NCBI GenBank assembly: GCA_027493775.1 | Contig: JAOSKE010000002.1 | Location: 407,435-471,434 of the forward strand | Origin: Kiritimatiellia bacterium | Lineage (GTDB): Bacteria > Verrucomicrobiota > Kiritimatiellia > CAIVKH01 | Direction of reading: 5' to 3' | DNA: 64,000 bases | Part shown: positions 2,806 to 53,544 of the stretch, one piece after another | Numbering within the stretch: position 1 is the first letter of the stretch | Layout: each line of letters starts with the position of its first letter | Notes under the pieces: generated by a model | The model's database searches: none | What the model was told of the DNA's origin: nothing | Seen by the model: only the letters and a program-made list of their open reading frames with translations | Made by a program: the position numbers and the translations under genes

Positions 2806-3993
2806 CTATTGTTTGCTATAGGCCAGCACAAACCCGGCATAAAACGCGCACGCGCGGGTCAAATGCTCAATCTCGACACACTCATTCGGGGCGTGCGCCA
2901 TGTGTTCATGCCCGGGCCCGAACCCAATGGTCGGAATGTTGTGCATCCCCGCGCTGGCGACGCCGTTTGTGCTGAAGACCCAGTGGCCGACAATCGGCTT
3001 CTCATCGAACACCGCCTGATACGCCTCGCGCGCCTTCTTCACTTCGAGCGTGGATTCCGGCATCTCCCAGGTTGGGAAATACTTCTTCGTCGGATAGGTC
3101 AACCCCGTGTAGCTCGGCGTTGCATAATCAAGCACGCGCACAACCGCCTTCGCCTTCTTCACCGAAGGCAGCGCCTTGATCTGATTCACGGCAATCTTTT
3201 CCGTTTCGCCCACGGTCAAGCGGCGATCCAAATGGATGGCGCATCCGTCCGCGACCGCGCACAAACTCGGCGAGCGCGAACGGATGTGACTGATCGTCAC
3301 GGTGCCCTTGCCCAACGGCTTTTTCGGCTTGAGGCGCGCGTTCAACTTTTCGATATCCGCAATAATCGGCGCCATCTTATAGATCGCGTTCACGCCGCGT
3401 TCGGGCGCGGAGCCGTGGCAGGAAATTCCCGTCGTCTCCACTTCGATTTCCATGCGGCCACGGTGCCCGCGATAAATGCGCAGACTCGTCGGCTCGGTGA
3501 TGACAACCACGTTGGGACGTAGTTTCTCTTCCTTCACCAAATACTGCCAGCACAGCCCGTCACAGTCCTCCTCCTGCACCGTCGCCGTGATAAAGAGCGA
3601 TACATTCTTCGGGAAGCCCATCTTCTTCAAAAGCGCGCCCGCGTAAATTGCCGATGCCACACCGCCCTTCATGTCGCTTGTGCCGCGTCCATACAAACAT
3701 CCATTTTTTACAATCGGCTTGAACGGGTCGGTTTTCCATGCCTTGAGGTCGCCCACATCCACGGTGTCAATGTGCCCGTCAATAGCGATTTGAACCGGCC
3801 CCTTCCCGATTCGCCCGATGACGTTCCCCATCTTGTCCACGCGCACGGAATCGTAGCCGAGCTTCTTCATTTCATCTGCGATGCGGCGCGCAACGCGCCC
3901 CTCCTCGCTACTCAGCGATTTGATTGAGATGATGTCCTTCATGAATTTCAGAAGGCGCGATTCCATTGCCCGACTTGCTGCCAGTATGCTCAT
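2806..3993 (-). CDS. ygeY: YgeY-family M20 peptidase/hydrolase (selenium-metabolism-linked hydrolase family)
   Basis: 395 aa with M20 metallopeptidase motifs (GHIDTV, GRGTSDMKGG, ITEPT). Lies 5 nt downstream of the TrpB-like gene on the same strand. Confidence 0.8.
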   Translation of the reverse strand: MSILAASRAMESRLLKFMKDIISIKSLSSEEGRVARRIADEMKKLGYDSVRVDKMGNVIGRIGKGPVQIAIDGHIDTVDVGDLKAWKTDPFKPIVKNGCLYGRGTSDMKGGVASAIYAGALLKKMGFPKNVSLFITATVQEEDCDGLCWQYLVKEEKLRPNVVVITEPTSLRIYRGHRGRMEIEVETTGISCHGSAPERGVNAIYKMAPIIADIEKLNARLKPKKPLGKGTVTISHIRSRSPSLCAVADGCAIHLDRRLTVGETEKIAVNQIKALPSVKKAKAVVRVLDYATPSYTGLTYPTKKYFPTWEMPESTLEVKKAREAYQAVFDEKPIVGHWVFSTNGVASAGMHNIPTIGFGPGHEHMAHAPNECVEIEHLTRACAFYAGFVLAYSKQ

Positions 3994-3998
3994 GACCT

Positions 3999-5487
3999 TT
4001 ACTCCATGTTTTTCAGTACGCCTGTTGCCTCATTGAATTCCGTGATCCGCCGATCCCATTCGGCGATCCGTTCCTCCGCAAAAATGTCCCGCCAGAACGA
4101 CTCGTCCCACAGCCTCCGCAAGTCTTCCACGTCCCGGCCCTGCTGTTCGACCCAGGTGAAGTATTTGAACTGATGCAACGCCTTCCGTTCCTGATAATTC
4201 AGCTCGCGGAAAAGAGATGTTGTGTGTCCATCGAGATAGGTCGCCGCCACGGAGATCGCATCGCGAGCGCTGAACCGGCCACGCGCCTCCGTCATTTCTT
4301 CGAGGCGCGATCCGTAAAGCTCCATCGAATCCGTAAGCGGAATAAACAGAACGTCATTGCGGTCCATCTCGTAATATTCGGCGGTCTTTACCGCTGCGAC
4401 CAAATTGCAGATTCCGGAAATGCCTGCGAGATCGAGCGATTCAATCGTTGCTTCTGGCACTCCGCTTGCCGCGAGCAAATTTTTTCCCTCTATCTCGTTA
4501 AACAACCGCATGAGCTGCATGACCGCCTCGTCATCCACCGCGGCCACCGCATCGGTATTGCGGACGTTGTGAACCCACGGAACATGCTTGTCCCCGATTC
4601 CCTCGATTCGGTGTGCGCCGAATCCAAACTGGTACAGCGTCGGACACTGTAACGCCTCCGCCGCAACGACACGCAGCTGTGGATATTTTGTCCGCAAATA
4701 ATCGCCCGCCGCAATGGTGCCCGCCGATCCCGTTGCGCTGATAAATCCCGCAAGCCGCGAAGAAGGCCCACGGATCTGATTTTCGTACACCTCGCTGATC
4801 AGCGAACCGGTGACGTGATAATGCCACATCGCGTTTCCAAACTCTTCTGAACTGATTGAAAATCACGATGTCATCGCCGCGCGTGCGGCGTAGCTCCCAG
4901 CACTTGTCGTAAATCTCTTTTACGTTCGACTCCGTGCCCGGCGTCGCAATGATCTCGTCCGTCCCGATCTCGCGCAACCAGTTGAATCGCTCCTGACTCA
5001 TTCCCTCCGGCAGAATCGCAATGGCGGGACAGCCCAGCAGCGCACAGTCGTACGCGCCGCCCCGACAATAGTTGCCGGTGGATGGCCACACGGCCTTTTG
5101 CCGGGTCGGATCGAACTGCCCCGAGACCAGACGCGGCACGAGACATCCATAGGCTGCGCCCACTTTATGGGCGCCCGTCGGAAACCACTTTCCGACAATG
5201 CCCACGATTCGAGCGTCCACCCCCGTCAGCGCCGAGGGAAACTCAATCCAGTTCCCTTCTCCGAATCCGCCTCCGCGCGGCTTCGGCTCGTTCTTCCATG
5301 TGATGCGAAACAAATTCAGCGGATTCACATCCCACAATCCGATGGAGGAAAGTTTTGTCTTAATCGCGGCGGGGATTTGGGAAGGATCCATTTGCTGCGC
5401 GATGGTCGGCAAAATTACATGCCGCTCTCGCGCACGACCAATCGCCCGTTGCAATACGCTCTCTTCCGCCATCAATCCCGTAGTCAT
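3999..5487 (-). CDS. TrpB-like PLP-dependent enzyme (tryptophan synthase beta superfamily); frameshifted near 4848
   Basis: N-terminal ORF 4531-5487 has the PLP-lysine motif FPTGAHKVG and ends ...DIVIFNQF. C-terminal ORF 3999-4829 continues in another frame (EEFGNAMWHYHVTGSL...). A 1-nt indel at about 4848 restores one ~495-aa protein. Confidence 0.75.
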
Positions 5488-6005: not shown

Positions 6006-8330
6006 GTTATCCGCCCTCGCGTTCTTGAATCGCTTTCCAAATGGCATTCGGCATGAACGGAGAGCTGCGCATACGAACGCCCACGGCATTGTAGATGGCG
6101 TTGGCGATGCAGGGGAGCGGGCCGTTGATGCAAATTTCGGAAACGCTCTTTGCGCCGTACGGGCCACTCTTTTTCGTAGCTGGGGACCAGAATGGTCTTC
6201 AGCGCCGGCTTGTCCCGCATGGACATGATCTTGTAGTGCGCGAAGGATGGATTGAGCATCCGCCCGCGTGAACTGAAGCGATACTGCTCCGTCAACGCAT
6301 AGCTGATTCCGTTCAACACGCCGCCCTCGGTCTGGCCCTCGGCCAGCTTCGGGTTCACTGCCGTGCCGCAATCCACCGCTGCGACATAGCGCAGGACGCG
6401 CACCCTGCCGGTCAACGTGTCCACCTCCACTTCGCAGAAATGTGCGGAGAAAGGCGGCGGCGACTTGTGCGTGATATGCGAGGAAATCGCGCCAATTTGG
6501 AACTGGTCCGACCCATAGAGCGAGCGCAGCGCGATTTCCGGAGAACGTGACGGATTTTCCATCCGGCCCAAACGCGCAGTTGTCGCGCAGATCGATTTCC
6601 TTGGGTTTGCATTCCATCATCGCGGCGCCAACACCAGCGATTTGTTTGGCAACTTTTTCGGCGACGTTCTTCACCGCCATTCCGCTGAGATACGTCGTGC
6701 TGGAGGCATACGCGCCAACATCGAACGGGGTTGTGTCCGTGTCCGACGAATAGACGATGAGCTTGTCCACATCGCAGCCGACTGTTTCTGCAGCGATTTG
6801 CGCAAGAATGGTATCGCTCCCCGTCCCGATGTCCGTCGCGCCGACCAGCAAATTGAATGACCCGTCGTCATTCATCTTCATCGTTGCCGCGCCCATATCA
6901 ATTTCGGGGATGCTGGATCCCTGCATCAGCGACGCCATTCCGATGCCGCGACGGAAGCGCCCTTTTTTGTCCTGCCAGCGCCCGCGCTTTTTCCAACCGA
7001 TCTCGCGTGCGCCGAGCTTCATGCACTTCTCCATTTCGCAACTGCCGATGGACTGTTCGACGCCCGCCTTTCCTTCTCCCAGCGCCCGGAAAACCGGCGA
7101 TGTTTCACCCGAGCGAATCGTGTTCATCCGGCGGAACTCCAGCGGGTCCATGCCGAGCATCTCCGCCAGCTCATCCATCATGCAATCAATGCCGAACGTG
7201 GATTGCGTCGCGCCATACCCGCGATACGCTCCGCCGACCGGCAGGTTGGTGTATGCGGATTCGCCGACAAAGTGGATGGTTTTGCTGCGGTACAGCGGAA
7301 GAATTTTGCTGCCGCTATTGCACACCACCGTCAGCGCGTGCGCACCGTACGCCCCCGAGTTTGTGCAGCAATCCAACGCAAGCGCACTGATTGATCCATC
7401 CTTTTTCACGCCGGCACGAATACGCATTTTCTCGGGATGTCGCGTCCGGCTGGAAACAAACTCTTCCTCGCGCGTGTATTTCCAATGCACGGCCCGACCG
7501 GTACGCAACGCGAACATGGCAACCACCGGCTCCAGCAGCACCTCCTGCTTTCCTCCGAAGCCGCCTCCGATGCGGGGTTTCACAACGCGAATCCTGCGCA
7601 CCGGGATCTGAAGCACCTGCGCAACGATGCGGCGGACATGGAACGGCACCTGTGTGCTCGTTGTGACAATCACGCGACCATCTACATCAAGATGCGCGGT
7701 CACGATATGCGGTTCAATCGGACAGTGATGCGCATAGTCCGTGTAAAACTCCCGATCAAGCATCGTGTCCGCCGCCTTCAATTCGGCCTCGACATCCCCC
7801 ACGTCCATTGCGACCCGCGCGGCGAGATTCCGCTGCGGTTCGTATGGAACCGGAATCGGGACATGCGCCTCCGGCTCGTCGTGGATCACAGGCGCACCGG
7901 GCTTGAGCGCGTCATCAATCGTGAATACGGCGGGCAGTTCCTCGTACACCACCTTGATCGCCTTCACTGCTGCGGCAGCCTGTTCCGGCGTATCCGCGGC
8001 AACTGCGGCGACGCGATCACCAACGAAGCGCACTTTATTGTCAAACAGGAAGGAATCGTATGGCGAGGGCTCGGGAAAACCCTGTCCCGCAGTCGTGTGA
8101 ACCACACGCGGAACATTGCCGTGATGCAGGATGCAATGCACCCCCGGCATCTTCTCCGCCTCGCTTACATCAATGGATACAATCCGCGCGTGCGCATGGG
8201 GACTCCACAGCGCCTTCACATACAAGGAGTCGGCGGGCTTCAAATCCGCGACAAACATCGGCTTGCCGGTGGCAAGCGAGAGGGAGTCAATTTTCCGGAC
8301 GGACTTTGCGACAACATTAAATTTCTTCAT
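6006..8330 (-). CDS. xanthine dehydrogenase family molybdopterin-binding subunit (XdhD-like); two frameshifts (~6540 and ~6166)
   Basis: N-terminal 600 aa read in the frame of ORF 5973-8330 up to ...GPDGKSVTFS. The middle (FCEVEVDTLTGRVRVL...GQTEGG...ILVPSYEKE) is in the frame of ORF 5891-6571. The true C-terminus GPYGAKSVSEICINGPLPCIANAIYNAVGVRMRSSPF...EREGG-stop at 6006 is in the third frame. Confidence 0.8.
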
Positions 8331-30668: not shown

Positions 30669-30704
30669 GAGGGCGCGGCGCCCGCCGCGCCCTCTCTATT
30701 TATT
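30669..30704 (+). terminator. rho-independent terminator after the hsp20 operon
   Basis: GAGGGCGCGGC-gccc-GCCGCGCCCTC (11-bp GC-rich stem) followed by TCTATTTATT, between convergent hsp20 and alaS. Confidence 0.6.
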
Positions 30705-33385
30705 CCAAAAGTTTTTCAGCAGCAGCAAGCGCGGCGTCCAGCTTTGACGCATCCTTGCCGCCGCCTCGCGCGAAGTCAGGTTTGCCACCGCCACGTCCAC
30801 CGACAATCGGAGCAATCGTTTGAATAATTTTTCCCGCCTGCGCCTGCTTTGTGTAATCCGCAGAAACAGAGGCCAGGAGCGCGACCGCGCCAGCGCTCGC
30901 CGCGCCCAATACGACGACCCCCGCAAAACGCGATTTGAGATGATCCGCAATCGCGCCCATGGTATCGCCGTCCACTTCGCCAAGATTCGCGACAATCGTC
31001 GGACGGCCGCCGCGCGTGACCGCCTGCGCGCACAACGCTTCGGCTCGCTCCGCGGCTTGCTTCAAATGAAACGACTTCAATTGTTTTTCCAACGCCTTCT
31101 GATGCGCAAACAACGCCTCAACACGTTTCTCCATTTCGGCGGGCGCAGAATTCAGCGCAGCGGCGGTGCGCTTCAATTGGTGTAGATCATCGGCGACAGA
31201 CTGCCAACCGGATAAACCGGCAACGGCTTCAATGCGACGAATCCCCGCAGCAATTCCGCCCTCGCCGACAATCCGGAACAAACCGATTTCACCGGTCGCG
31301 CGTGTATGCGTTCCGCCGCACAGCTCCATCGAATAGCCGTTCAGCTCGCCCGGTGCGCCACCGATCTGCACAACGCGCACAACATCGCCGTATTTATCGC
31401 CAAAGAAGTGCATGACATCGGGGCGCGCCTTCACATCGGCATACGCGGTTTCCCGCCAACTCACCGGCGCGTTCTCGACAATTCGCTCGTTGACCAATCG
31501 CTCAATATCCGCCACCTGCGACGGCGTCAGCGCAGCGCTGTTGAAGTCGAACGTGAGCTTGTCCGGGCCGACATACGATCCCTTCTGACTCGCATCTGGA
31601 CTGACCACTTCGTGGAGCGCCCAGTGAAAAATATGCGTTGCGGTATGATGCCGTTGAATCGCATTACGCCGCGACATATCCACGGAAATAGAAATTTCGG
31701 CCCCTGCTTCCGGAGACTCGCCGCCGTCAACAAAGTGAAGCCAGGCATCTCCCGCCTTTTGCGTATCAACAATGCGCCAAAGCCGACTGCCTAATCGAAT
31801 CTGCCCCGTGTCGCCGACCTGTCCGCCCATCTCGGCATAGCACGGGCTCTGATCGAGAATAACCGCAACGCGGCCTTTCACATCGAGCACATCCTCCACC
31901 CGCGCCGACGCTTCAAAATGGTCGTAACCGACGAAGTCTGTTTTCACTTCGCTCGCAATATCGGCCACCTCAATCACGGTCTTTTTCTGCGCGGCGCGCG
32001 CACGGGCGCGTTGCTCCTCCATATGCTTTTCAAAACCGATATGGTCCACGCCCAACCCCTGCTCGCGCGCCATCAACTCGGTCAGATCGAGCGGAAAACC
32101 GTAGGTGTCATACAGCTTGAACGCGAATGCGCCATCCAACGATTCCCCACGCGCAAGGCGGTCCGCACGTTCATGAAACAACTCAATGCCGCGATCAAGG
32201 GTCCGATTGAACGCCTCCTCTTCCACGCGAATCGTTTCCTGTACGGCTTTTCTGTGCACGCGAATTTCGGGGAATACATCGCCCATTGTTTCGGCGAGAA
32301 CATCCACCAACTTGAAAAAGAAAGGCTCGCCAAATCCGAGCGCACGGCCGTAGCGGACGGCGCGGCGCAGGATCCGACGTAGCACGTAATGGCGATCCGT
32401 ATTACCCGGTTGAATTCCATCGGCAATGGCAAAACTTAACGCGCGGATATGGTCGGCAATCACGCGAAACGCAACGTCCACCTTCTCCTGCTCCGTCTCG
32501 CCCGCGCTGCCCGTCGCAGGAAGCGTCGAGCCATAGTTTTTTCCGCTCAAGCGTTGCAGCGCATCGAAAATCGGGCGGAACACATCCGACTCGTAGTTGG
32601 ATACCATCCGGCTGAAGTCGGTGAAATTTTTTGTGCATTGCATGATTCCCGCAACGCGCTCAAAGCCCATCCCGGTATCCACATGCTTTGCCGGGAGCGG
32701 ACTGAAAGAACCGTCCGCATCGGCATTGAACTGAATGAACACGAGATTCCAAATCTCAATACACTCCGCAGAACCCTTGTTCACCAATGCACCACGCGTG
32801 TCGCCAGCGGGGGTCAGATCAATATGAATTTCCGAGCATGGCCCGCAAGGCCCCGTGTCGCCCATCATCCAGAAGTTGTCCTTCTTGTTGCCGTTGACGA
32901 TGTGTTCCCCGGGATCAAGTCCGGCGCTCGTGAAAACTGCAGCCCATTGATCGTACGCTTCTTGATCAAATTCCGACGGATCACCCGCGCTCTTGTCCGG
33001 ACTGTACACCGTCGCGTAGAGGCGCTCGGCAGGAAATTTCCAGACCTTCGTCAGCAATTCCCACGCCCACTCGATCGCCTCCTTCTTGAAGTAATCGCCG
33101 AACGACCAGTTGCCGAGCATCTCGAAAAAGGTGTGGTGATAGGTATCGAGTCCGACATCCTCTAAATCGTTGTGCTTACCGCCGGCGCGAATGCACTTTT
33201 GCGTATCGGCCGCGCGACCGGGATGATACGGACACGACTGCTGGCCGAGAAAGATCGGTACAAACTGATTCATTCCCGCGTTCGTGAACAATAGATTCGG
33301 CGAATCCGGCATCAGGCTCGACGACGGCACGATGGTGTGTTGCTTCGACTTGAAAAAGTCGAGGTACGACTGACGAATTTGGCTG
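30700..33385 (-). CDS. alaS: alanine--tRNA ligase
   Basis: Class II aaRS AlaS motifs across ~894 aa (FTNAGMNQF, catalytic core, editing domain HTATH...CGGTH, C-terminal DHHA1-like). Start at tandem ATG 33385/33382 (MMTSSQIRQ); the ORF track start 33519 adds an implausible extension. Confidence 0.9.
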
Positions 33386-33564
33386 GAAGTCATCATAAAA
33401 CTCTTCAAAAGAAGGCGAAACGATAGGCAAACGCGGCCCGCAAGACCAGCGGAAGTTTGGGGGCGGCGCAAATGCCGGAATAACGCTAAAAACTTGCCGT
33501 ACATCCGCACACCAAGCACACTTCGCCCCAGATTTTATTTGTAAAAGGGTGATAAGAACCATTT

Positions 33565-33611
33565 TTCCAAGGGTTGGAAGTCCCGCAAAGGGTCTTTTCC
33601 AACCCTTGGAA
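33565..33611. promoter_or_regulatory. pair of 15-bp palindromic sites TTCCAA-N3-TTGGAA (candidate operator) upstream of proB
   Basis: TTCCAAGGGTTGGAA (33565-33579) and TTCCAACCCTTGGAA (33597-33611), exact reverse complements, centres 32 bp apart, ending 21 nt before the proB ATG. Confidence 0.55.
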
Positions 33612-33631
33612 GTTTCTGATAGAGTGGCGCC

Positions 33632-34774
33632 ATGGCTGTCGAAAAATCCATTCGAACTCGTCTGACGAAGGCCCAGCGGATCATCGTAAAGATCGGAAGT
33701 CGCGTGATTGTTCAGCGCACGGGCCGCCCCGACCGGCGACGTATGCGCGAATTGGTCCGTCAGCTCGCTGCTCTTCACAAAGAAGGGCGCGAAGTCGTCG
33801 TGGTCTCTTCGGGCGCGATTGGGAGCGGAATCGAAGCGTTGGGCTGGCGCAAAAAACCCACGACGTTGAAGCTGCTCCAAATGGCGGCAGCGGTGGGACA
33901 ATCGCGATTGATGGCGGAATACGACGAACTCTTTGCCGCGCACGATATTCGGATCGGTCAGATTTTGCTGACGCACGAAGACCTACGCCACCGCACACGG
34001 CACCTCAATGCGTCGGCAACGATCACCACACTGTTGGAACATCGCGTCATTCCGATCATTAACGAAAACGACGTGGTTGCAATTGATGAGATAAAATTCG
34101 GCGACAACGATTTACTCGCGGCATTGACCAGCCTGCTGATTCAGGCCGACGCGCTGGTTCTCCTGAGCACCGTGGACGGATTTCGCGCACCCGCCGGAAA
34201 AGGCCGCACCCGCCGCGTTCCCACACTGGCCGGGGTTGGGGAAAAAGAACTGGCGCTTGCGCTGGGCAAAGGCAGCGCGCTCTCCACCGGAGGGATGGCG
34301 AGCAAGCTTCAATCCGCAGGGATGGTCGCCGAAAACGGAATTCCTGTTGTCATTGCCAACGGGCGTTCCGACGGCGTGCTTGAGCAAATTTTGGCAGGAG
34401 CGGATATTGGAACGTTGATTAAGGCAAACGTGTCGCCCAGCGCTCTCTCGCGCCGAGAGCGCTGGATCACACTATTCCACCGCCCTGAAGGCGCGTTGGT
34501 CGTGGACAACGGCGCACGCGTCGCGCTACTCGAAAAAGGCCGCAGTTTGCTGCCGGTCGGCATTCGCGAGGTGGAGGGCCATTTTGAAGCTGGCGCCGTG
34601 GTCAGTATTAAGGCGCTGGACGGTGCAGAAATTGGGCGGGGACTGTGTACCTTTTCCAGCACAGAAATGCGCCTGATGAAAGGTCGGCACTCCAAAGAGC
34701 TGGAGGCGATTCCCGGACATACCGAAGCGCCCGAAGCGGTCCATCGCGACAACCTTGTTTTTCGTAAGAAATAG
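33632..34774 (+). CDS. proB: glutamate 5-kinase with C-terminal PUA domain
   Basis: ...RIIVKIGSRVI...VVVVSSGAIG...INENDVVAIDEIKFGDNDLLAA... plus PUA domain. Confidence 0.9.
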   Translation: MAVEKSIRTRLTKAQRIIVKIGSRVIVQRTGRPDRRRMRELVRQLAALHKEGREVVVVSSGAIGSGIEALGWRKKPTTLKLLQMAAAVGQSRLMAEYDELFAAHDIRIGQILLTHEDLRHRTRHLNASATITTLLEHRVIPIINENDVVAIDEIKFGDNDLLAALTSLLIQADALVLLSTVDGFRAPAGKGRTRRVPTLAGVGEKELALALGKGSALSTGGMASKLQSAGMVAENGIPVVIANGRSDGVLEQILAGADIGTLIKANVSPSALSRRERWITLFHRPEGALVVDNGARVALLEKGRSLLPVGIREVEGHFEAGAVVSIKALDGAEIGRGLCTFSSTEMRLMKGRHSKELEAIPGHTEAPEAVHRDNLVFRKK

Positions 34775-48663: not shown

Positions 48664-50344
48664 TTACGGAACCCTGAAGTTTGCGGTCAACTCAACGACC
48701 TCTTTTCCGACGGCCTCTATGACCGATTCGTTTTGCGGGTCGTTGAGCACGCGCGAAATGAATCCCGCAATACGGGCCATTTCCTTTTCCTTCATTCCGC
48801 GCGTGGTCAACGCGGGAGTGCCGAGACGAATGCCCGAAGTGACAAAGGCGCTCTTGGTATCGAACGGAATCGTGTTTTTATTGACCGTGATGTTCGCCCT
48901 ATCCAGCGCTACCGCCGCGTCCTTTCCGCTAAGCCCCGCAGCGCCGACATCCACGAGCATCAGGTGATTGTCCGTGCCACTGGAGCAAATCCGGAAGCCT
49001 GCATCCATCATCCCCTTCGCCAAGGCCCGCGCATTGGCAACGATCTGTTTCGCGTAGTCCGCGAACGACGGCTGCAGTGCCTCGCCAAAGCAAATCGCCT
49101 TCGCAGCAATAATATGCATCAGCGGCCCGCCCTGAATGCCGGGGAATACCTGCTTATCGAGATCTGCCGCAAATTTTTCGCGGCACAAAATCAAGCCACC
49201 GCGCGGGCCGCGCAGCGTCTTGTGCGTCGTCGAGGTGACAAAGTCGGAATAGGGAACCGGAGCTCGGATGCGCACCGCCCGCGACCAACCCCGCGATGTG
49301 CGCCATATCCACCATCAGCAACGCGCCGACACTGTCCGCAATCTCGCGGAAACGCTTGAAGTCAATGATGCGGGAATAGGCGCTCGCGCCGGAGGTGATT
49401 AGTTTCGGACGATGCTCCTTCGCAAGACGCTCGATCTCGTCGTAGTCAATCTGCTCCGTGTCCTGCCGCACGCCGTACGGAATCACCTTATAGTAACGGC
49501 CCGAAAAGTTCATCGGGTGACCGTGGGTCAGGTGTCCGCCATGCGAGAGATTCATCGCGAGAATCGTGTCGCCCGGTTGCAGCACTGAAAAATAAACCGC
49601 CATATTGGCCTGACTGCCGCTGTGCGTCTGCACATTCGCGTGCTCCGCGCCGAACAACTGCGTCACGCGGTCAATTGCAAGCTGCTCCGCTTTGTCCACA
49701 CACTCGCAGCCGCCGTACCAGCGCTTCTTGGGATAACCCTCGGCGTACTTGTTCGTCATATTGCAGCCAGCAGCCTGACGAATCGCGCGGCTCGTGTAGT
49801 TTTCGGAAGCAATCAGCTCCAAATTCCGGCGCTGCCGAACGCCCTCTTCCGTAATCGCTTCGAAGATCGGTGAATCGTGCTTGGCGATGGAGTCCAATCC
49901 CCCGGCAATGTTGCTCGATTGTTCAATCTTTTCGATGCGGCGAACGTGGCGGCCGCCCTCAAATTCTGTCGCAAACCACTTCTCTAAAATTGCGGGAATC
50001 TCCGCAGTCGGCGTCGTCGCCGCACCAAAGACGATGATATTTGCATTGTTGTGCAAACGTGCAAGTCGTGCCATTTCGGGCGAAACGATCAAAGCGGCGC
50101 GAATGCCGGGATAACGGTTCGCAGTGATGCTCATCCCCACGCCGGTCTTGCAGATCAACAAGCCCTGATCAAATTCGTGATCCGCAACGCGACGCGCAAC
50201 GACGCTCGCGTAGTCAGGATAGTCCACCGACTCCGGCCCAAAAGCGCCGATGTCCTCAACCTCAACGCCACGCTTTGTGAGCAGGTCCTTAACCAACGCC
50301 TTCATCTCCACGCCGCCGTGGTCGGAACCAATAATCATCTTCAT
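48664..50344 (-). CDS. glyA: ribose-5-phosphate isomerase B fused to serine hydroxymethyltransferase; frameshifted near 49264
   Basis: Residues 1-145 are RpiB ([11 protein letters not shown]...[15 protein letters not shown]...[13 protein letters not shown]), running without stop into SHMT ([11 protein letters not shown]...[11 protein letters not shown]). The SHMT C-terminus ([25 protein letters not shown]...) is in the frame of ORF 48664-49275. Confidence 0.75.
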
Positions 50345-50844
50345 TGTTCTTCGCTCTCCGTCTTCCGTTTCAATTGTTTCGTATCTTCCAAAATCGTCAG
50401 CAGCACATCCGCGATCGCGCGGTCAATTCGGTCGCGCGTGAAGCGATACACATCCAGCGACATCCCGATCGGGTCTGGAATATCCTCCATCCGCCGATCC
50501 GTGCCGAATTCCGTCAGCAGGCGCACCCGATCCCGCGCCTCGGGGAACATCGAAAGCACCGCCTGTGCATGACCGCGCGTCATCACAATAATCCAATCGG
50601 ACTCTTCCACCAACTTTTGCGTCAGTGGCTGGCTGCGGTGCTGGCGGACATCAATCTGCCACTCGCGCAGTGCAACCAACGCCTCCGCGCTCGCGGGCAC
50701 GCCCGTCAGTGCGGCGACGCCGGCGGATTTTACGCGCCAACCCGGACGGTTTCCGAGCCGATGCCGCAAAATCGCCTCCGCCATCGGGCTGCGACAAATG
50801 TTGCCCGTGCAGACAAACAAAACTTGATGTGTAGCTTCAGCCAT
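50341..50844 (-). CDS. low-molecular-weight protein tyrosine phosphatase (or arsenate reductase-like)
   Basis: P-loop motif [17 protein letters not shown]. Start at ATG 50844 preceded by GAGAGAGGGAAA; the ORF track start 50916 runs through the palindromic operator. Confidence 0.8.
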
Positions 50845-50878
50845 TTCGTAAAAGCGTTTCCCTCTCTCAACCAAAAAC

Positions 50879-50925
50879 TTCCAAGGGTTGGAAGAACCGT
50901 TCCGCGCGACTTCCAAGGCTTGGAA
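50879..50925. promoter_or_regulatory. pair of 15-bp palindromic sites TTCCAA-N3-TTGGAA (candidate operator) upstream of the PTP/rpiB-glyA operon
   Basis: TTCCAAGGGTTGGAA (50879-50893) and TTCCAAGGCTTGGAA (50911-50925), centres 32 bp apart, 35-81 nt upstream of the minus-strand start at 50844. Confidence 0.55.
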
Positions 50926-50944
50926 CTTTTGCCCACAGTCGGCG

Positions 50945-52264
50945 TTACAACGCGGACGATAGCGGGCCGGGCCGGATATTCAAGGCTTTGAGTCCCAACA
51001 AAACATCCACGGCCCGCTGCAACGCCGCATCGCCGCGAATCCGGTCGCGCAACGCGAGGTCGGAATCTTCCTGATCCAATCGAATCCGACGATCCACCCC
51101 CAGCTCCGGCTCGTACTCAACTTTGCCGGGGCCCGCAGGCAGAATCACGGTCGGTTTCACGCCCGACCGCCCGTCGAGCACGATGCCATCTCCCACAAGC
51201 AGCTTCCGCGTTGCAATGCAAAGTGACTCGCTGTCAGAAATGGAAATGACATCGCGGATGGCGGGGTCGCCCGCAGTCTCGCGCCCGATCACGAGCGTTC
51301 CGCGCAAGCTGCCTGCCGCCGTCGCAGCCAGCGCTTCCGCCGCGCCGGAAGTGTGTTCGTCCACGAGAACCATCACAGGCAAATCAATCGGCGCGGATCC
51401 ACCGGCTTGATAGTTCGTCAGCGTATTGCCGTCGCGATCGAGAAATGAAAACAGCGCCGAACCGGGCGATGCAAACGCGCCGGCAATCTGCGCCGCGCTG
51501 GCAACGTCGCTCCCATCTGCACCGCGCAAATCGAGAATGCCTCCCGCGAGTTTTGCGTCCGCCCACGCCTGCAACTGCGTCAACACCCCCTCGCCGGAAC
51601 CCGCATTCAATCCATTTACTCGCGCATAGCCGATGTCGCGCGGCCACATTTCCGAAACTTCGAACAGGGGGAACGGCGACAACACCCGCTCAACGCGAGT
51701 GGTGGCGGGAGCATTCGTGCCGCGCACGTAAATCAGCTCCGTGCCGCCCGCCGTATGGCCGCGCAACTGGCGCAACGCATCGCTTAACGTGACGTTGGTG
51801 GCCGGCGCGCCCTGAATGGAAATAATGCGATCTCCCGTGCGCAAACTCTCCCCAAGGTCGGCTGGCGCGGCGACGACCACCGGCGTTGCATTCGAAATGG
51901 TCAGGCGGATATCCGTGTGGTAATCCACGCCCGCTTGTTCGTGTTGCCAGTGCTCCAACTCAGCCGCGGTGAAAAGTCGCGCCTGCGGATCCACGATGCG
52001 CGCAACACATTCGTAGAGCGGCGCACGTTCCTCGTCGCCGGTCAGTTGAATGCCGTGCGCCGCCAGATTCGCCAACAGCGCATCCACGTCGGCAACCAAT
52101 GGGTGTTTTGCGGGATCAGGCTCCGGCGTCGTCGCGACAACTTCTGCGTCGAGTTCCAAGACCGGCTCCGCAGCGAGATTCTCCTCAGCAACCTGCGCAT
52201 GAAGGCCGACAGGCAAAAGAAGTACGCCGAAGAGAAACAGCAGTATTTGTCTTAGTTCATTCAT
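50945..52264 (-). CDS. S41-family peptidase (C-terminal processing protease-like), secreted
   Basis: Signal peptide MNELRQILLFLFGVLLLPVGLHA; S41-like catalytic region (...VLVDEHTSGAAEALA...). Confidence 0.65.
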   Translation of the reverse strand: MNELRQILLFLFGVLLLPVGLHAQVAEENLAAEPVLELDAEVVATTPEPDPAKHPLVADVDALLANLAAHGIQLTGDEERAPLYECVARIVDPQARLFTAAELEHWQHEQAGVDYHTDIRLTISNATPVVVAAPADLGESLRTGDRIISIQGAPATNVTLSDALRQLRGHTAGGTELIYVRGTNAPATTRVERVLSPFPLFEVSEMWPRDIGYARVNGLNAGSGEGVLTQLQAWADAKLAGGILDLRGADGSDVASAAQIAGAFASPGSALFSFLDRDGNTLTNYQAGGSAPIDLPVMVLVDEHTSGAAEALAATAAGSLRGTLVIGRETAGDPAIRDVISISDSESLCIATRKLLVGDGIVLDGRSGVKPTVILPAGPGKVEYEPELGVDRRIRLDQEDSDLALRDRIRGDAALQRAVDVLLGLKALNIRPGPLSSAL

Positions 52265-53544
52265 AGCAAAAGCGCCCGCCATGCAATATCCTTCCGATAG
52301 TGTGCGTTCGCAAAGCTAATTTTTTCGGCCGCCCCGTATGCCCGCGACACCGCATCGCGCAAACTCGCCCCCATTGCGGTCACGCCGAGAACGCGACCGC
52401 CGTTTGTGACCACTTCCCTGTCCTTTAATAGAGTCCCCGCGTGGAACACCACAGCGCTCTGTTGTTGCGCGGCTGCTGACAGCCCGGAAATTGTGTCGCC
52501 ACACGCATACGAGCCGGGGTAGCCGCCGGCCACCATTACGACGCAGGCACAGGCTTCGTCCTTCCACCGTACAAGCTCATCGCGCAGCTCGCCGTCCGCG
52601 CACGCATCCAGCGCGGGGAGCAAATCGCCGTCCCAACGCGGGAGAATCGCCTGAATTTCGGGATCGCCGAAGCGACAATTGAACTCAAGCACCCTCATAC
52701 CACGGGCGGTCAGCATCAATCCCGCGTACAACACGCCGCGATAGATGATGCCGCGGTTGCGAAGCTCCCTCAGCGTCGGTTCAAAAACAGTCTTGCGAAC
52801 AACTGGCCACAACTCGTCGCTCACGACAGGCGCCGGTGAATAGGCCCCCATCCCGCCCGTGTTTGGCCCCTGATCGCCATCGAAAACACGTTTGTGATCC
52901 TGCGCAGAGGCGAGCATCACAAGATGCTCGCCATCGGTCAGCGCGAGGATGGATGCTTCCTCTCCTTCGAGAAATTCTTCAATCACAACTTGCGCGCCGG
53001 AGCTGCCAAACGCGCCGCGCACCATCATTTCTTCAATCGCCGACTCCGCCGCCGTCAGCGTCTCGCAAATCACAACGCCCTTCCCCGCCGCTAGTCCGTC
53101 GGCTTTCACAACCAATGGCAGTTGCGCCCCACGCGCGTAAATCAGCGCTTCGCCGACTTCGGTGAACGAGGCCGATTTGGCTGTCGGCACACCCGCCTTG
53201 AGCATCACGTCTTTGGAAAAAACCTTGCTGCCTTCGATCTGAGCGGCGGCCTTGTTCGGCCCGAATACGCGCAAGCCTTCGGCCTGCAATCGGTCTGTGA
53301 GCCCGGCGCACAAGGGGGCTTCCGGCCCGATGACGACGAGGTGCGGCCGATGTTCAATTGCCCACGCGACAAGTCCTTCGCAATCCGTCGCGGCAAGATC
53401 AAGGTTCGTTGCGATTTCCGCCGTTCCCGCGTTTCCGGGCGCGCAGACCAAGCGCGGTTGCGCACTGTCCTGCGCGAGCTTCCACGCCAACGCGTGTTCG
53501 CGGCCCCCGCCGCCGACAATTAAAATCAGAGGATGGCTGTTCAT
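52261..53544 (-). CDS. purD: phosphoribosylamine--glycine ligase
   Basis: MNSHPLILIVGGGGREHALAWKL... ATP-grasp pattern; 427 aa. Confidence 0.9.
   Translation of the reverse strand: MNSHPLILIVGGGGREHALAWKLAQDSAQPRLVCAPGNAGTAEIATNLDLAATDCEGLVAWAIEHRPHLVVIGPEAPLCAGLTDRLQAEGLRVFGPNKAAAQIEGSKVFSKDVMLKAGVPTAKSASFTEVGEALIYARGAQLPLVVKADGLAAGKGVVICETLTAAESAIEEMMVRGAFGSSGAQVVIEEFLEGEEASILALTDGEHLVMLASAQDHKRVFDGDQGPNTGGMGAYSPAPVVSDELWPVVRKTVFEPTLRELRNRGIIYRGVLYAGLMLTARGMRVLEFNCRFGDPEIQAILPRWDGDLLPALDACADGELRDELVRWKDEACACVVMVAGGYPGSYACGDTISGLSAAAQQQSAVVFHAGTLLKDREVVTNGGRVLGVTAMGASLRDAVSRAYGAAEKISFANAHYRKDIAWRALLL

Follow-up and report, generated by a model that had tools for sequence, protein, structure and literature searches.

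What the twin palindromes upstream of an LMW phosphatase gene are for is the question that this locus raises. The initial annotation had seen in the two TTCCAA-N3-TTGGAA sites found there, together with a similar pair in front of proB, a suggestion of a small regulon. In this study, the pair was followed within the window (the whole stretch of DNA that was analysed, 64,000 nucleotides in length) and among its relatives in Kiritimatiellia.

A pattern search of the window allowing at most one mismatch returned exactly four sites, all perfect, at 33565, 33597, 50879 and 50911, against a chance expectation of 0.14 sites in shuffled sequence, and none of 100 shuffles contained four or more. When up to three mismatches were allowed, the window held 25 matches versus 23.6 expected, which is the chance level, suggesting that the sites of the source genome are all perfect. 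The four sites form two pairs, so that the claim of a second copy of the twin element is upheld, and each pair has the same 32 bp from start to start, just as had been stated, with a spacer of 17 nt and the same orientation relative to its gene. Read in gene orientation, the two pairs share the pattern TTCCAAG-SS-TTGGAAGTC-N14-TTCCAACCCTTGGAAGTTTyTG. On the plus strand, the pair at the phosphatase (PTP) locus reads TTCCAAGGGTTGGAA at 50879-50893 and TTCCAAGGCTTGGAA at 50911-50925, and the sequence agrees with its description as lying 35-81 nt upstream of the minus-strand ATG at 50844. In the direction of transcription, the features of this locus are the following.

52261-53544, minus strand: purD, upstream of the S41 gene
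50945..52282, minus strand: peptidase S41 gene, with its stop codon 19 nt upstream of the palindrome pair
50911..50925, minus strand: distal palindrome of the PTP-locus pair, TTCCAAGCCTTGGAA in gene orientation
50894..50910, minus strand: 17-nt spacer of the pair, GTCGCGCGGAACGGTTC in gene orientation, setting the 32-bp spacing of about three helical turns
50879..50893, minus strand: proximal palindrome of the pair, TTCCAACCCTTGGAA in gene orientation, 35 nt from the ATG
50869..50878, minus strand: T-rich flank GTTTTTGGTT after the proximal palindrome, which together with a 7-bp stem gives a terminator-like flag
50341..50844, minus strand: LMW phosphatase gene (LMWPc; named arginine phosphatase at NCBI), downstream of the pair
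48664..50344, minus strand: RpiB-SHMT fusion gene, present as two ORFs (49154-50344 and 48664-49275) with a frame break near 49154-49275

The LMW phosphatase of the window matches a protein at NCBI from a Kiritimatiellae MAG with 100% identity, and the RpiB-SHMT fusion is unbroken in relatives (555-560 aa). The gene order purD-S41-PTP-RpiB/SHMT is shared with two orthologous loci, L118 (87% PTP identity) and L117 (83%), and the whole pair is kept in both. Both arms of both palindromes are identical in L118 and L117; the centres vary (GCC or GCG in the distal palindrome, and CCC, GCC or TCC in the proximal one), the spacer matches at 17/17 positions in L117 and 15/17 in L118, and the DNA from the S41 stop codon to the pair is divergent among the orthologs. 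Between the pair and the ATG of PTP, there is an indel of 1 nt in L118 and of 3 nt in L117. Open reading frames running through the motif do exist, as the initial annotation had noticed (50341..50916 with NPWKF, and 33574..34062), but they cannot be kept as a coding extension, since homologues begin MAEATHQ; this start and the indels before the ATG together mark the N-terminal extension of 50341..50916 as non-coding. The same artefact recurs in relatives, where gene callers often read through arrays at the 5' ends of genes (as in L121 versus L119 calls for the same genes), and the arrays thus explain a recurrent source of false N-terminal extensions in annotation.

The pair at 50879-50925 lies inside a gap of 100 nt from the S41 gene to the LMW phosphatase gene. 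Relatives at a greater distance (54-57% PTP identity) have overlapping genes in the order purE (or another gene)-S41-Sua5/TsaC-LMWPc-RpiB/SHMT, and neither gap nor site is found before PTP. Because S41, Sua5, LMWPc and RpiB/SHMT overlap there as an operon, the gap of the window looks intercistronic; it occupies the position of the missing Sua5 gene, inside what elsewhere forms an operon, and this makes the assignment of a promoter at PTP uncertain. A consensus scan detected no sigma-70-like promoter in the S41-PTP gap. The upstream non-coding position assigned to the pair is correct, but its placement at a promoter is not clear.

The sister pair lies in the divergent gap of alaS and proB, where the features are as follows.

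30700-33396, minus strand: alaS, with its true start at MMTSSQIR
33565..33611, plus strand: sister pair, reading TTCCAAGGGTTGGAA, 17 nt and TTCCAACCCTTGGAA, 20 nt from the proB ATG
33617..33625, plus strand: possible extended -10, TGATAGAGT, directly ahead of the proB start codon (ATG, 33632), as read from the sequence
33632-34774, plus strand: proB, followed by proA

The putative extended -10 is conserved as TGATACACT in an orthologous locus, L066, and no full sigma-70 promoter was found at the proB locus by consensus scan. If this promoter is used, the proximal palindrome would overlie its -35/spacer region and proB would be nearly leaderless. In L066, the alaS product of which is 78% identical, both palindromes are in place with identical arms and altered centres (GGG to TCC and CCC to TCG), two extra sites are present upstream, and the intergenic region is similar in length. 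Hence neither locus of the window shows any change in the arms among orthologs of 78-87% protein identity, and the central triplets and intergenic flanks diverge; such invariant arms are best read as footprints of selection on the arms themselves, and a site bound by a protein would be expected to show them.

The pair turned out to be part of a large family. A scan using one genome per species, in which two palindromes were allowed to be 7-28 nt apart (22-43 from start to start), found the pair in at least 116 loci, and in about 46 assemblies among the matches listed, with about 0.1 matches expected by chance for the 24 specified bases. Nearly all the assembly labels among these listed matches are Kiritimatiellia, Kiritimatiellales, Tichowtungia, Pontiella, 'Lentisphaerae' or Verrucomicrobiota, and the same 12 arm positions are found across these assemblies. 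The matches listed and the window together hold 390 perfect sites, arranged from pairs to arrays of up to six, along with 79 sites with one mismatch and 43 with two (versus 18 with two in a shuffle); the family loci were selected for perfect pairs, so that the apparent perfection of the sites is inflated. The family consensus, (T)TTTCCAA-N-S-N-TTGGAAA(A), is dyad-symmetric, with G or C at the central base in 386/390 sites (99%; matches listed and window), and the most variable arm position is the innermost one (A/G). The dyad reaches into the flanks, as the base after TTGGAA is A in 71-73% and T in 1-3% of the listed matches, with the mirror image on the other side. Symmetric double variants account for 4/9 of the phased two-mismatch sites (TTCCAG..CTGGAA three times, TCCCAA..TTGGGA once), a hint of constraint at the level of the hairpin or palindrome.

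The most distinctive property of the family is its spacing. Among 192 adjacent perfect sites in the matches listed and the window, the start-to-start distances fall into three classes only, 21-22 bp (14), 30-33 bp (169) and 42-43 bp (9), the commonest being 31 bp (91) and 32 bp (70), and no adjacent sites in the listed matches are 23-29 or 34-41 bp apart, despite a scan that permitted 22-43. Longer distances, on which the scan placed no constraint, are also multiples of about 10.4-10.5 bp, up to 127 bp, and in loci picked by the PTP protein rather than by the motif all neighbour distances are 30-32 bp, with 31 and 32 often mixed. The spacing of two, three or four turns is thus helical phasing. 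The spacers are fixed in length and unrelated in sequence between different loci. Some spacers of one genome, CAIVKH01 ('bin-1020'), are related to one another (GTTTGCG...), which implies that copying has occurred.

Placement was assessed with a crude self-trained gene finder, checked on the window. Pair density is 0.44-0.99/kb in intergenic DNA versus 0.035/kb deep in coding sequence, an enrichment of about 20-fold. By type of gap, it is 0.82 pairs/kb in convergent and 0.44 pairs/kb in divergent gaps, tandem gaps also hold pairs, and several pairs in convergent gaps are bounded by high-scoring genes on both sides. A count from the site map of bin-1020 gave the element in 7/7 convergent gaps (of at least 80 nt) versus about 2/8 divergent ones. 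In a 20.5-kb stretch of L121 with independent gene calls, six arrays occupy one divergent gap upstream of the purE operon, two convergent gaps and three tandem gaps; the arrays bracket the purE-S41-Sua5-PTP-RpiB/SHMT operon on both sides, and four sites fill the 132-nt convergent gap after RpiB/SHMT. Many pairs are 1-30 nt past stop codons. Start codons follow the last palindrome after anything between 0 and more than 150 nt, and a common register is not seen. Gene and operon boundaries of every kind are marked by the family, rather than those of one pathway.

We consider it slightly better than an even bet that the family is an array for a dimeric DNA protein that binds cooperatively at gene and operon boundaries. 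Each palindrome would be occupied by a homodimeric, sequence-specific DNA-binding protein, and neighbouring dimers would touch along one face of the helix across two, three (the usual case) or four turns, so that a nucleoprotein complex would assemble cooperatively on the DNA that separates genes and operons. In the S41/PTP gap, such a complex could block or modulate read-through into PTP-rpiB/glyA, and at proB, over the -35/spacer region of the putative promoter, it would most simply act in repression. Binding of a protein to DNA is the best-supported interpretation because the spacing is quantised in turns across spacers of free sequence, the dyad runs through the centre and the flanks, and the arms are invariant. 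From sequence we infer not only this binding but also the type of protein and any effect on transcription, and the candidate roles of the putative complex accordingly range from a barrier or roadblock through a topological site or global regulation to no role at all. No recurrent DNA-binding family and no small DNA-binding protein was found beside the arrays in the family loci. Several observations count against a protein array. The sites are unusually perfect for transcription-factor sites; the symmetric double variants, the related spacers of bin-1020 and, as described below, the uneven copy number and the sites in MurF weigh on the same side; and the apparently higher occupancy of convergent than of divergent gaps fits tolerated insertion.

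The latter pattern leads to a first rival explanation, in which the family is a REP/MITE-like selfish repeat, mobile or copy-driven via a transposase or recombinase, tolerated in intergenic DNA and with no host function at PTP or proB; in that case the phasing would stem from the way in which the mobilising protein is built. We regard this as unlikely. Besides the apparent preference for convergent gaps, it would explain why copy density varies so widely between related genomes, from two pairs in the 64-kb window to six arrays in the 20.5-kb stretch of L121 and about one every 2-4 kb in bin-1020 (in sampled blocks, picked for containing a pair), with zero sites in 19 kb of L123 (GCA_964500395.1), which is from a different lineage. 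Such uneven copy number resembles that of a repeat family. Near-identical spacers within the arrays of L038, L012 and L081 point to growth by tandem duplication, and the related spacer subfamily of bin-1020 agrees with copying. In MurF (L006), two sites sit in a segment of about 27 residues that appears to have been inserted in frame and at which the match to Mur_ligase_M is broken, and 14 IMG/VR viral contigs match the motif, about half of them carrying the same type of site.

Against a selfish repeat stands the behaviour of the arms, which stay perfect in orthologs as the surrounding DNA diverges, and of the core, which is conserved across about 46 assemblies of the whole class among the matches listed. 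Copies inside genes speak in the same direction. Pfam confirmed intragenic pairs in mnmE (L096) and aroB (L104). The mnmE segment with the pair equals that of E. coli MnmE in length, and the aroB segment with the pair is 5 residues shorter than related AroB (LFELLE in one protein corresponding to LFQCLE, encoded by cTTTTCCAATGTTTGGAAaa, in the other). Since neither segment shows an insertion, the motif seems to have been built in place in both genes, and this indicates selection for the DNA sequence itself. Y1_Tnp genes were found in L081 and L092, but the one in L081, the only clearly RAYT-like gene whose flanks are visible, has another, GC-rich repeat on its sides and no TTCCAA site nearby.

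Comparison with known repeats is informative in this respect. REPs, which occur in Proteobacteria and other phyla, are usually species- or genus-specific, and in E. coli REP/BIME elements are bound by IHF and gyrase, among others. Like them, the Kiritimatiellia sites are high-copy and mainly intergenic, occur as dimers and clusters, after stop codons, inside operons and in convergent gaps, differ in copy number between genomes and have occasional intragenic copies. They differ in being perfect dyads of 15-19 bp, whereas REPs are imperfect stem-loops of 20-40 bp, and in their strict helical-turn spacing, unrelated spacers and class-wide core. REP/REPIN palindromes carry a conserved tetranucleotide, GTAG or CGTC, at one of their ends, and the verrucomicrobium Opitutus terrae has REPs with occasional intragenic copies (PMC3733652). 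Such a GTAG or CGTC tag is absent from the flanks of the family, which are symmetric, with one side rich in T and the opposite side rich in A, and its absence is a further point against a selfish repeat of this kind. In other words, the family has the high-copy extragenic dimers and clusters by which REPs are recognised but not their species- or genus-specific sequence, and it has the whole-turn dyad spacing of operator arrays but not their restriction to the promoters of a coherent regulon; its distribution resembles that of REP/BIME elements or of sites for nucleoid-associated proteins, and its anatomy that of an operator array. The selfish repeat and the protein array are compatible, as copying could spread sites that are constrained by a protein.

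A narrower form of the protein array would be a dedicated, sequence-specific Kiritimatiellia protein that uses the phased arrays where transcription units meet as a general insulator, roadblock terminator or topological barrier, a proposition that seems to us rather doubtful at this degree of detail. Termination of the mTERF/Reb1 type and gyrase-binding BIMEs offer a comparable logic for such supposed protein-based punctuation, of which the S41/PTP and alaS/proB pairs would be two instances.

Another explanation is an element acting at the RNA level, with transcribed hairpins serving as intercistronic terminator, attenuator or stabiliser of mRNA ends; this would mean partial termination or stabilisation of the upstream transcript at S41/PTP and a leader attenuator at proB. 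Taken as a whole, this appears improbable to us. A terminator scan of the PTP locus gave one weak terminator-like match, consisting of the proximal palindrome and GTTTTTGG, and the proB pair folds as one long hairpin (-38 kcal/mol, z = -4.9), both of which favour an RNA element, as do the many pairs shortly after stop codons, the filling of convergent gaps and the symmetric double variants, which preserve pairing. Against it, the PTP region folds no better than shuffled sequence (z = -0.6), the stems are short and A/U-rich (6-8 bp with 3-nt loops, and 2-3 G:C pairs out of 6-7), pairs occur in divergent gaps too, helical-turn spacing has no RNA rationale, and the arms are conserved in sequence, beyond the mere ability to pair. 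A flank resembling the T-rich one of the PTP locus (GTTTyTG) also follows the proB pair; in the comparison of flanks across the family loci, it is no general feature of the palindromes. Neither a U-tract nor strand asymmetry relative to transcription was seen in the family flanks of tandem or convergent gaps, and the flanks in convergent gaps are the poorest in T (mean 1.35 T per 8 nt; four or more T in 3/26). A canonical intrinsic terminator was rejected on these grounds, as the stem is not G+C-rich and 3' T enrichment is lacking across the family.

A long hairpin formed by the whole pair fares no better. Isolated pairs with complementary centres (38) are about as frequent as those with identical centres (34), so that such a hairpin seems not to be under selection, and selection for a REPIN-like one was rejected. 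An RNA element also lacks a match to any Rfam family. At the gathering score, Rfam identified one tRNA only in the window, and a permissive search gave nothing at 50780-51000 and chance-level matches (E about 0.5) at 33390-33660.

Coming back to a protein bound to the DNA, several known systems show parts of the anatomy of the family. NrdR boxes are two 16-bp palindromes about 31-32 bp apart from centre to centre, upstream of ribonucleotide reductase genes. These twin palindromes, about three turns apart and bound cooperatively by an oligomeric repressor, have the geometry of the window pairs, but they have another sequence and are confined to nrd promoters, whereas the Kiritimatiellia family is found at hundreds of unrelated boundaries including convergent gaps. 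Arrays for Lrp/AsnC (feast/famine) proteins, such as those of E. coli Lrp at pap/ilvIH and the 15-bp boxes of Ss-LrpB, resemble the family in their 15-bp dyads of 6-3-6 form, in arrays of three to six sites and in a spacing of about three (or four) turns, and a global regulator of the Lrp type is at the same time a nucleoid protein, many of whose sites are not regulatory. However, the centre of Lrp sites is A/T-rich and the sites are degenerate, in contrast to the G/C centre and near-perfect arms seen here, and an Lrp gene is linked to the motif in one weak case only (L063). The ComK boxes of Bacillus subtilis, two AT-boxes that are two, three or four helical turns apart, have the identical discrete set of spacings, with the sites of two dimers lying along the same helical face, but their sequence is different, and ComK is a promoter-specific competence activator, not a protein of a genome-wide boundary element. 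DNA uptake sequences (DUS/USS) are exact motifs of naturally competent lineages, very numerous and frequent within coding regions too; the Kiritimatiellia motif, exact and abundant in some genomes, shows a depletion of about 20-fold in coding sequence and forms phased arrays.

These likenesses bear on the small regulon of amino-acid or central-metabolism operons put forward in the initial annotation, with a dedicated transcription factor acting on proBA and PTP-rpiB/glyA. In its favour, the window contains just two pairs, one upstream of proB and the other upstream of ywlE-rpiB-glyA-like genes, and they are oriented alike; close relatives retain both, and the geometry of the pairs matches operators of the NrdR or Lrp type. 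One gene of the AsnC/Lrp family (L063) is preceded by a pair at a distance of about 105 nt, but its genome is dense in pairs, and this case carries little weight because pairs occupy many intergenic gaps in bin-1020. Across the family, the 102 genes flanking pairs comprise 159 Pfam families with at most two members each and no enrichment, among the matches listed. Among them are sulfatases, glycosidases and Mur ligases as well as purM, a P-type ATPase and giant surface proteins, and the longest arrays neighbour FG-GAP, P-type ATPase, PurM, sulfatase, SIS/CBS, decarboxylase, TIG and RCC1 proteins. A few associations are seen in more than one genome, namely the murE/murF gap (L006, L040), a phosphoribosyltransferase (L014, L061), YggS (L017, L114) and aroB together with the gene that follows it (L023, L104). 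With at least 116 loci beside genes of so many families, with pairs in convergent gaps, for which one would not expect a promoter, within operons (murE/murF) and within genes, with many gaps of bin-1020 occupied, and with distant relatives that have neither gap nor site before PTP, the regulon is not borne out, and we give it very little credence.

A search of the literature turned up no account of this motif or of repeats in Kiritimatiellia; a paper on Hbb came up as a possible report of the motif and was set aside, as its match is a primer sequence only. The PTP and proB pairs should not be read as evidence for a shared metabolic regulon, the family being tied to no single function. The main interest of the family lies in its very clean phasing and in the presence of pairs in many gaps between transcription units in some genomes, and in MAGs the arrays offer a simple way of recognising operon boundaries from sequence. 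Should they be bound by a protein, the arrays would constitute a highly specific, previously undescribed signal of Kiritimatiellia at gene and operon boundaries, which would give access to the way in which transcription units are delimited or insulated in this poorly studied lineage of polysaccharide degraders.

The genes at the phosphatase (PTP) locus of the window are arranged as follows.
50945-52282, minus strand: S41 peptidase gene, upstream of the phosphatase gene
50845-50944: 100-nt gap with the twin TTCCAA-N3-TTGGAA element
50341-50844, minus strand: low-molecular-weight phosphatase gene
48664-50344, minus strand: RpiB-SHMT fusion, as two overlapping ORFs (49154-50344 and 48664-49275)

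In three more distant relatives (L119, L121 and L123), a Sua5/YciO/YrdC (TsaC-like) gene lies between the S41 and phosphatase genes and overlaps both neighbours; the window and the closer orthologous loci L117 and L118 are without it, and the gap with the twin element stands in its place. The SHMT profile match in the window is split at about profile position 217-219, and the RpiB-SHMT fusion is unbroken in relatives (555-560 aa); the break points either to an error (frameshift or assembly) or to a pseudogene. L123 (GCA_964500395.1, CAZCOO010000016.1) also has the S41-Sua5-PTP-RpiB/SHMT operon, and zero sites at <=2 mismatches were found in its whole 19.3 kb; some lineages are without the motif system.

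Automatic gene calls read through the arrays at 5' ends in L121 (2358-2434, 5103-5180 and 7383-7492) and in many of the pair-bearing scan loci L001-L116, whereas the orthologous calls in L119 begin downstream of the arrays. The N-terminal extensions produced by this read-through, with peptides such as SN[DH]WK, FQxLE and FPxIG, are false. At 361-375 of L005 and at other loci of the CAIVKH01 assembly, the palindrome centre is TGA/TCA, and the gene upstream can use this triplet as its stop codon (..TTC CAA TGA). At the proB start, an extended -10-like sequence, TGATAGAGT (window 33617-33632 region), ends 6 nt upstream of the ATG, and the orthologous locus L066 conserves it as TGATACACT; judged from sequence, the proB mRNA may be leaderless or nearly so.

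Pairs were also identified inside genes and operons.

Perfect pairs within coding sequences
L096 963-1009: mnmE, without insertion
L104 1037-1082: aroB, without insertion; locally 5 residues shorter than a related AroB
L006 1848-1928: murF, in-frame segment of ~27 residues
L010 1405-1451: sulfatase, between TAT signal and catalytic domain

The murE|murF junction of the dcw cluster holds a pair in two different assemblies (L006 1250-1307 and L040 4361-4407) and is a conserved intra-operon position.

Other repeats were found as well. A Y1_Tnp (RAYT-like) gene at 6663-7139 of L081 has tandem copies of the GC-rich repeat TTTGGAGACGCCGCGCCCTCGCGCCGCAATCCCCCC on both sides (region 6500-7330), an arrangement resembling a classical REP/RAYT system that exists separately within this lineage. 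L092 contains a second Y1_Tnp gene, at 161-571. Four IMG/VR viral contigs (L126, L128, L129 and L136) carry palindromes related to, yet different from, the TTCCAA-N3-TTGGAA family. Three AT-rich contigs among them have TTCCAA-N3-TTGGAA with A/T centres at a spacing of 28 bp, and in L136 GGAGTTCCAAASTTTGGAACTCC occurs six times at irregular intervals of 36-60 bp; these palindromes are probably separate families.

In L063 (region 3359-4011), a perfect pair lies directly after a rubredoxin-like ORF and ~105 nt upstream of a gene of the AsnC/Lrp family (3359-3838, minus strand), behind which comes an aminotransferase gene. With the caveat that pairs are dense in this genome, the AsnC/Lrp protein is possibly an autoregulated candidate binder of the pair.
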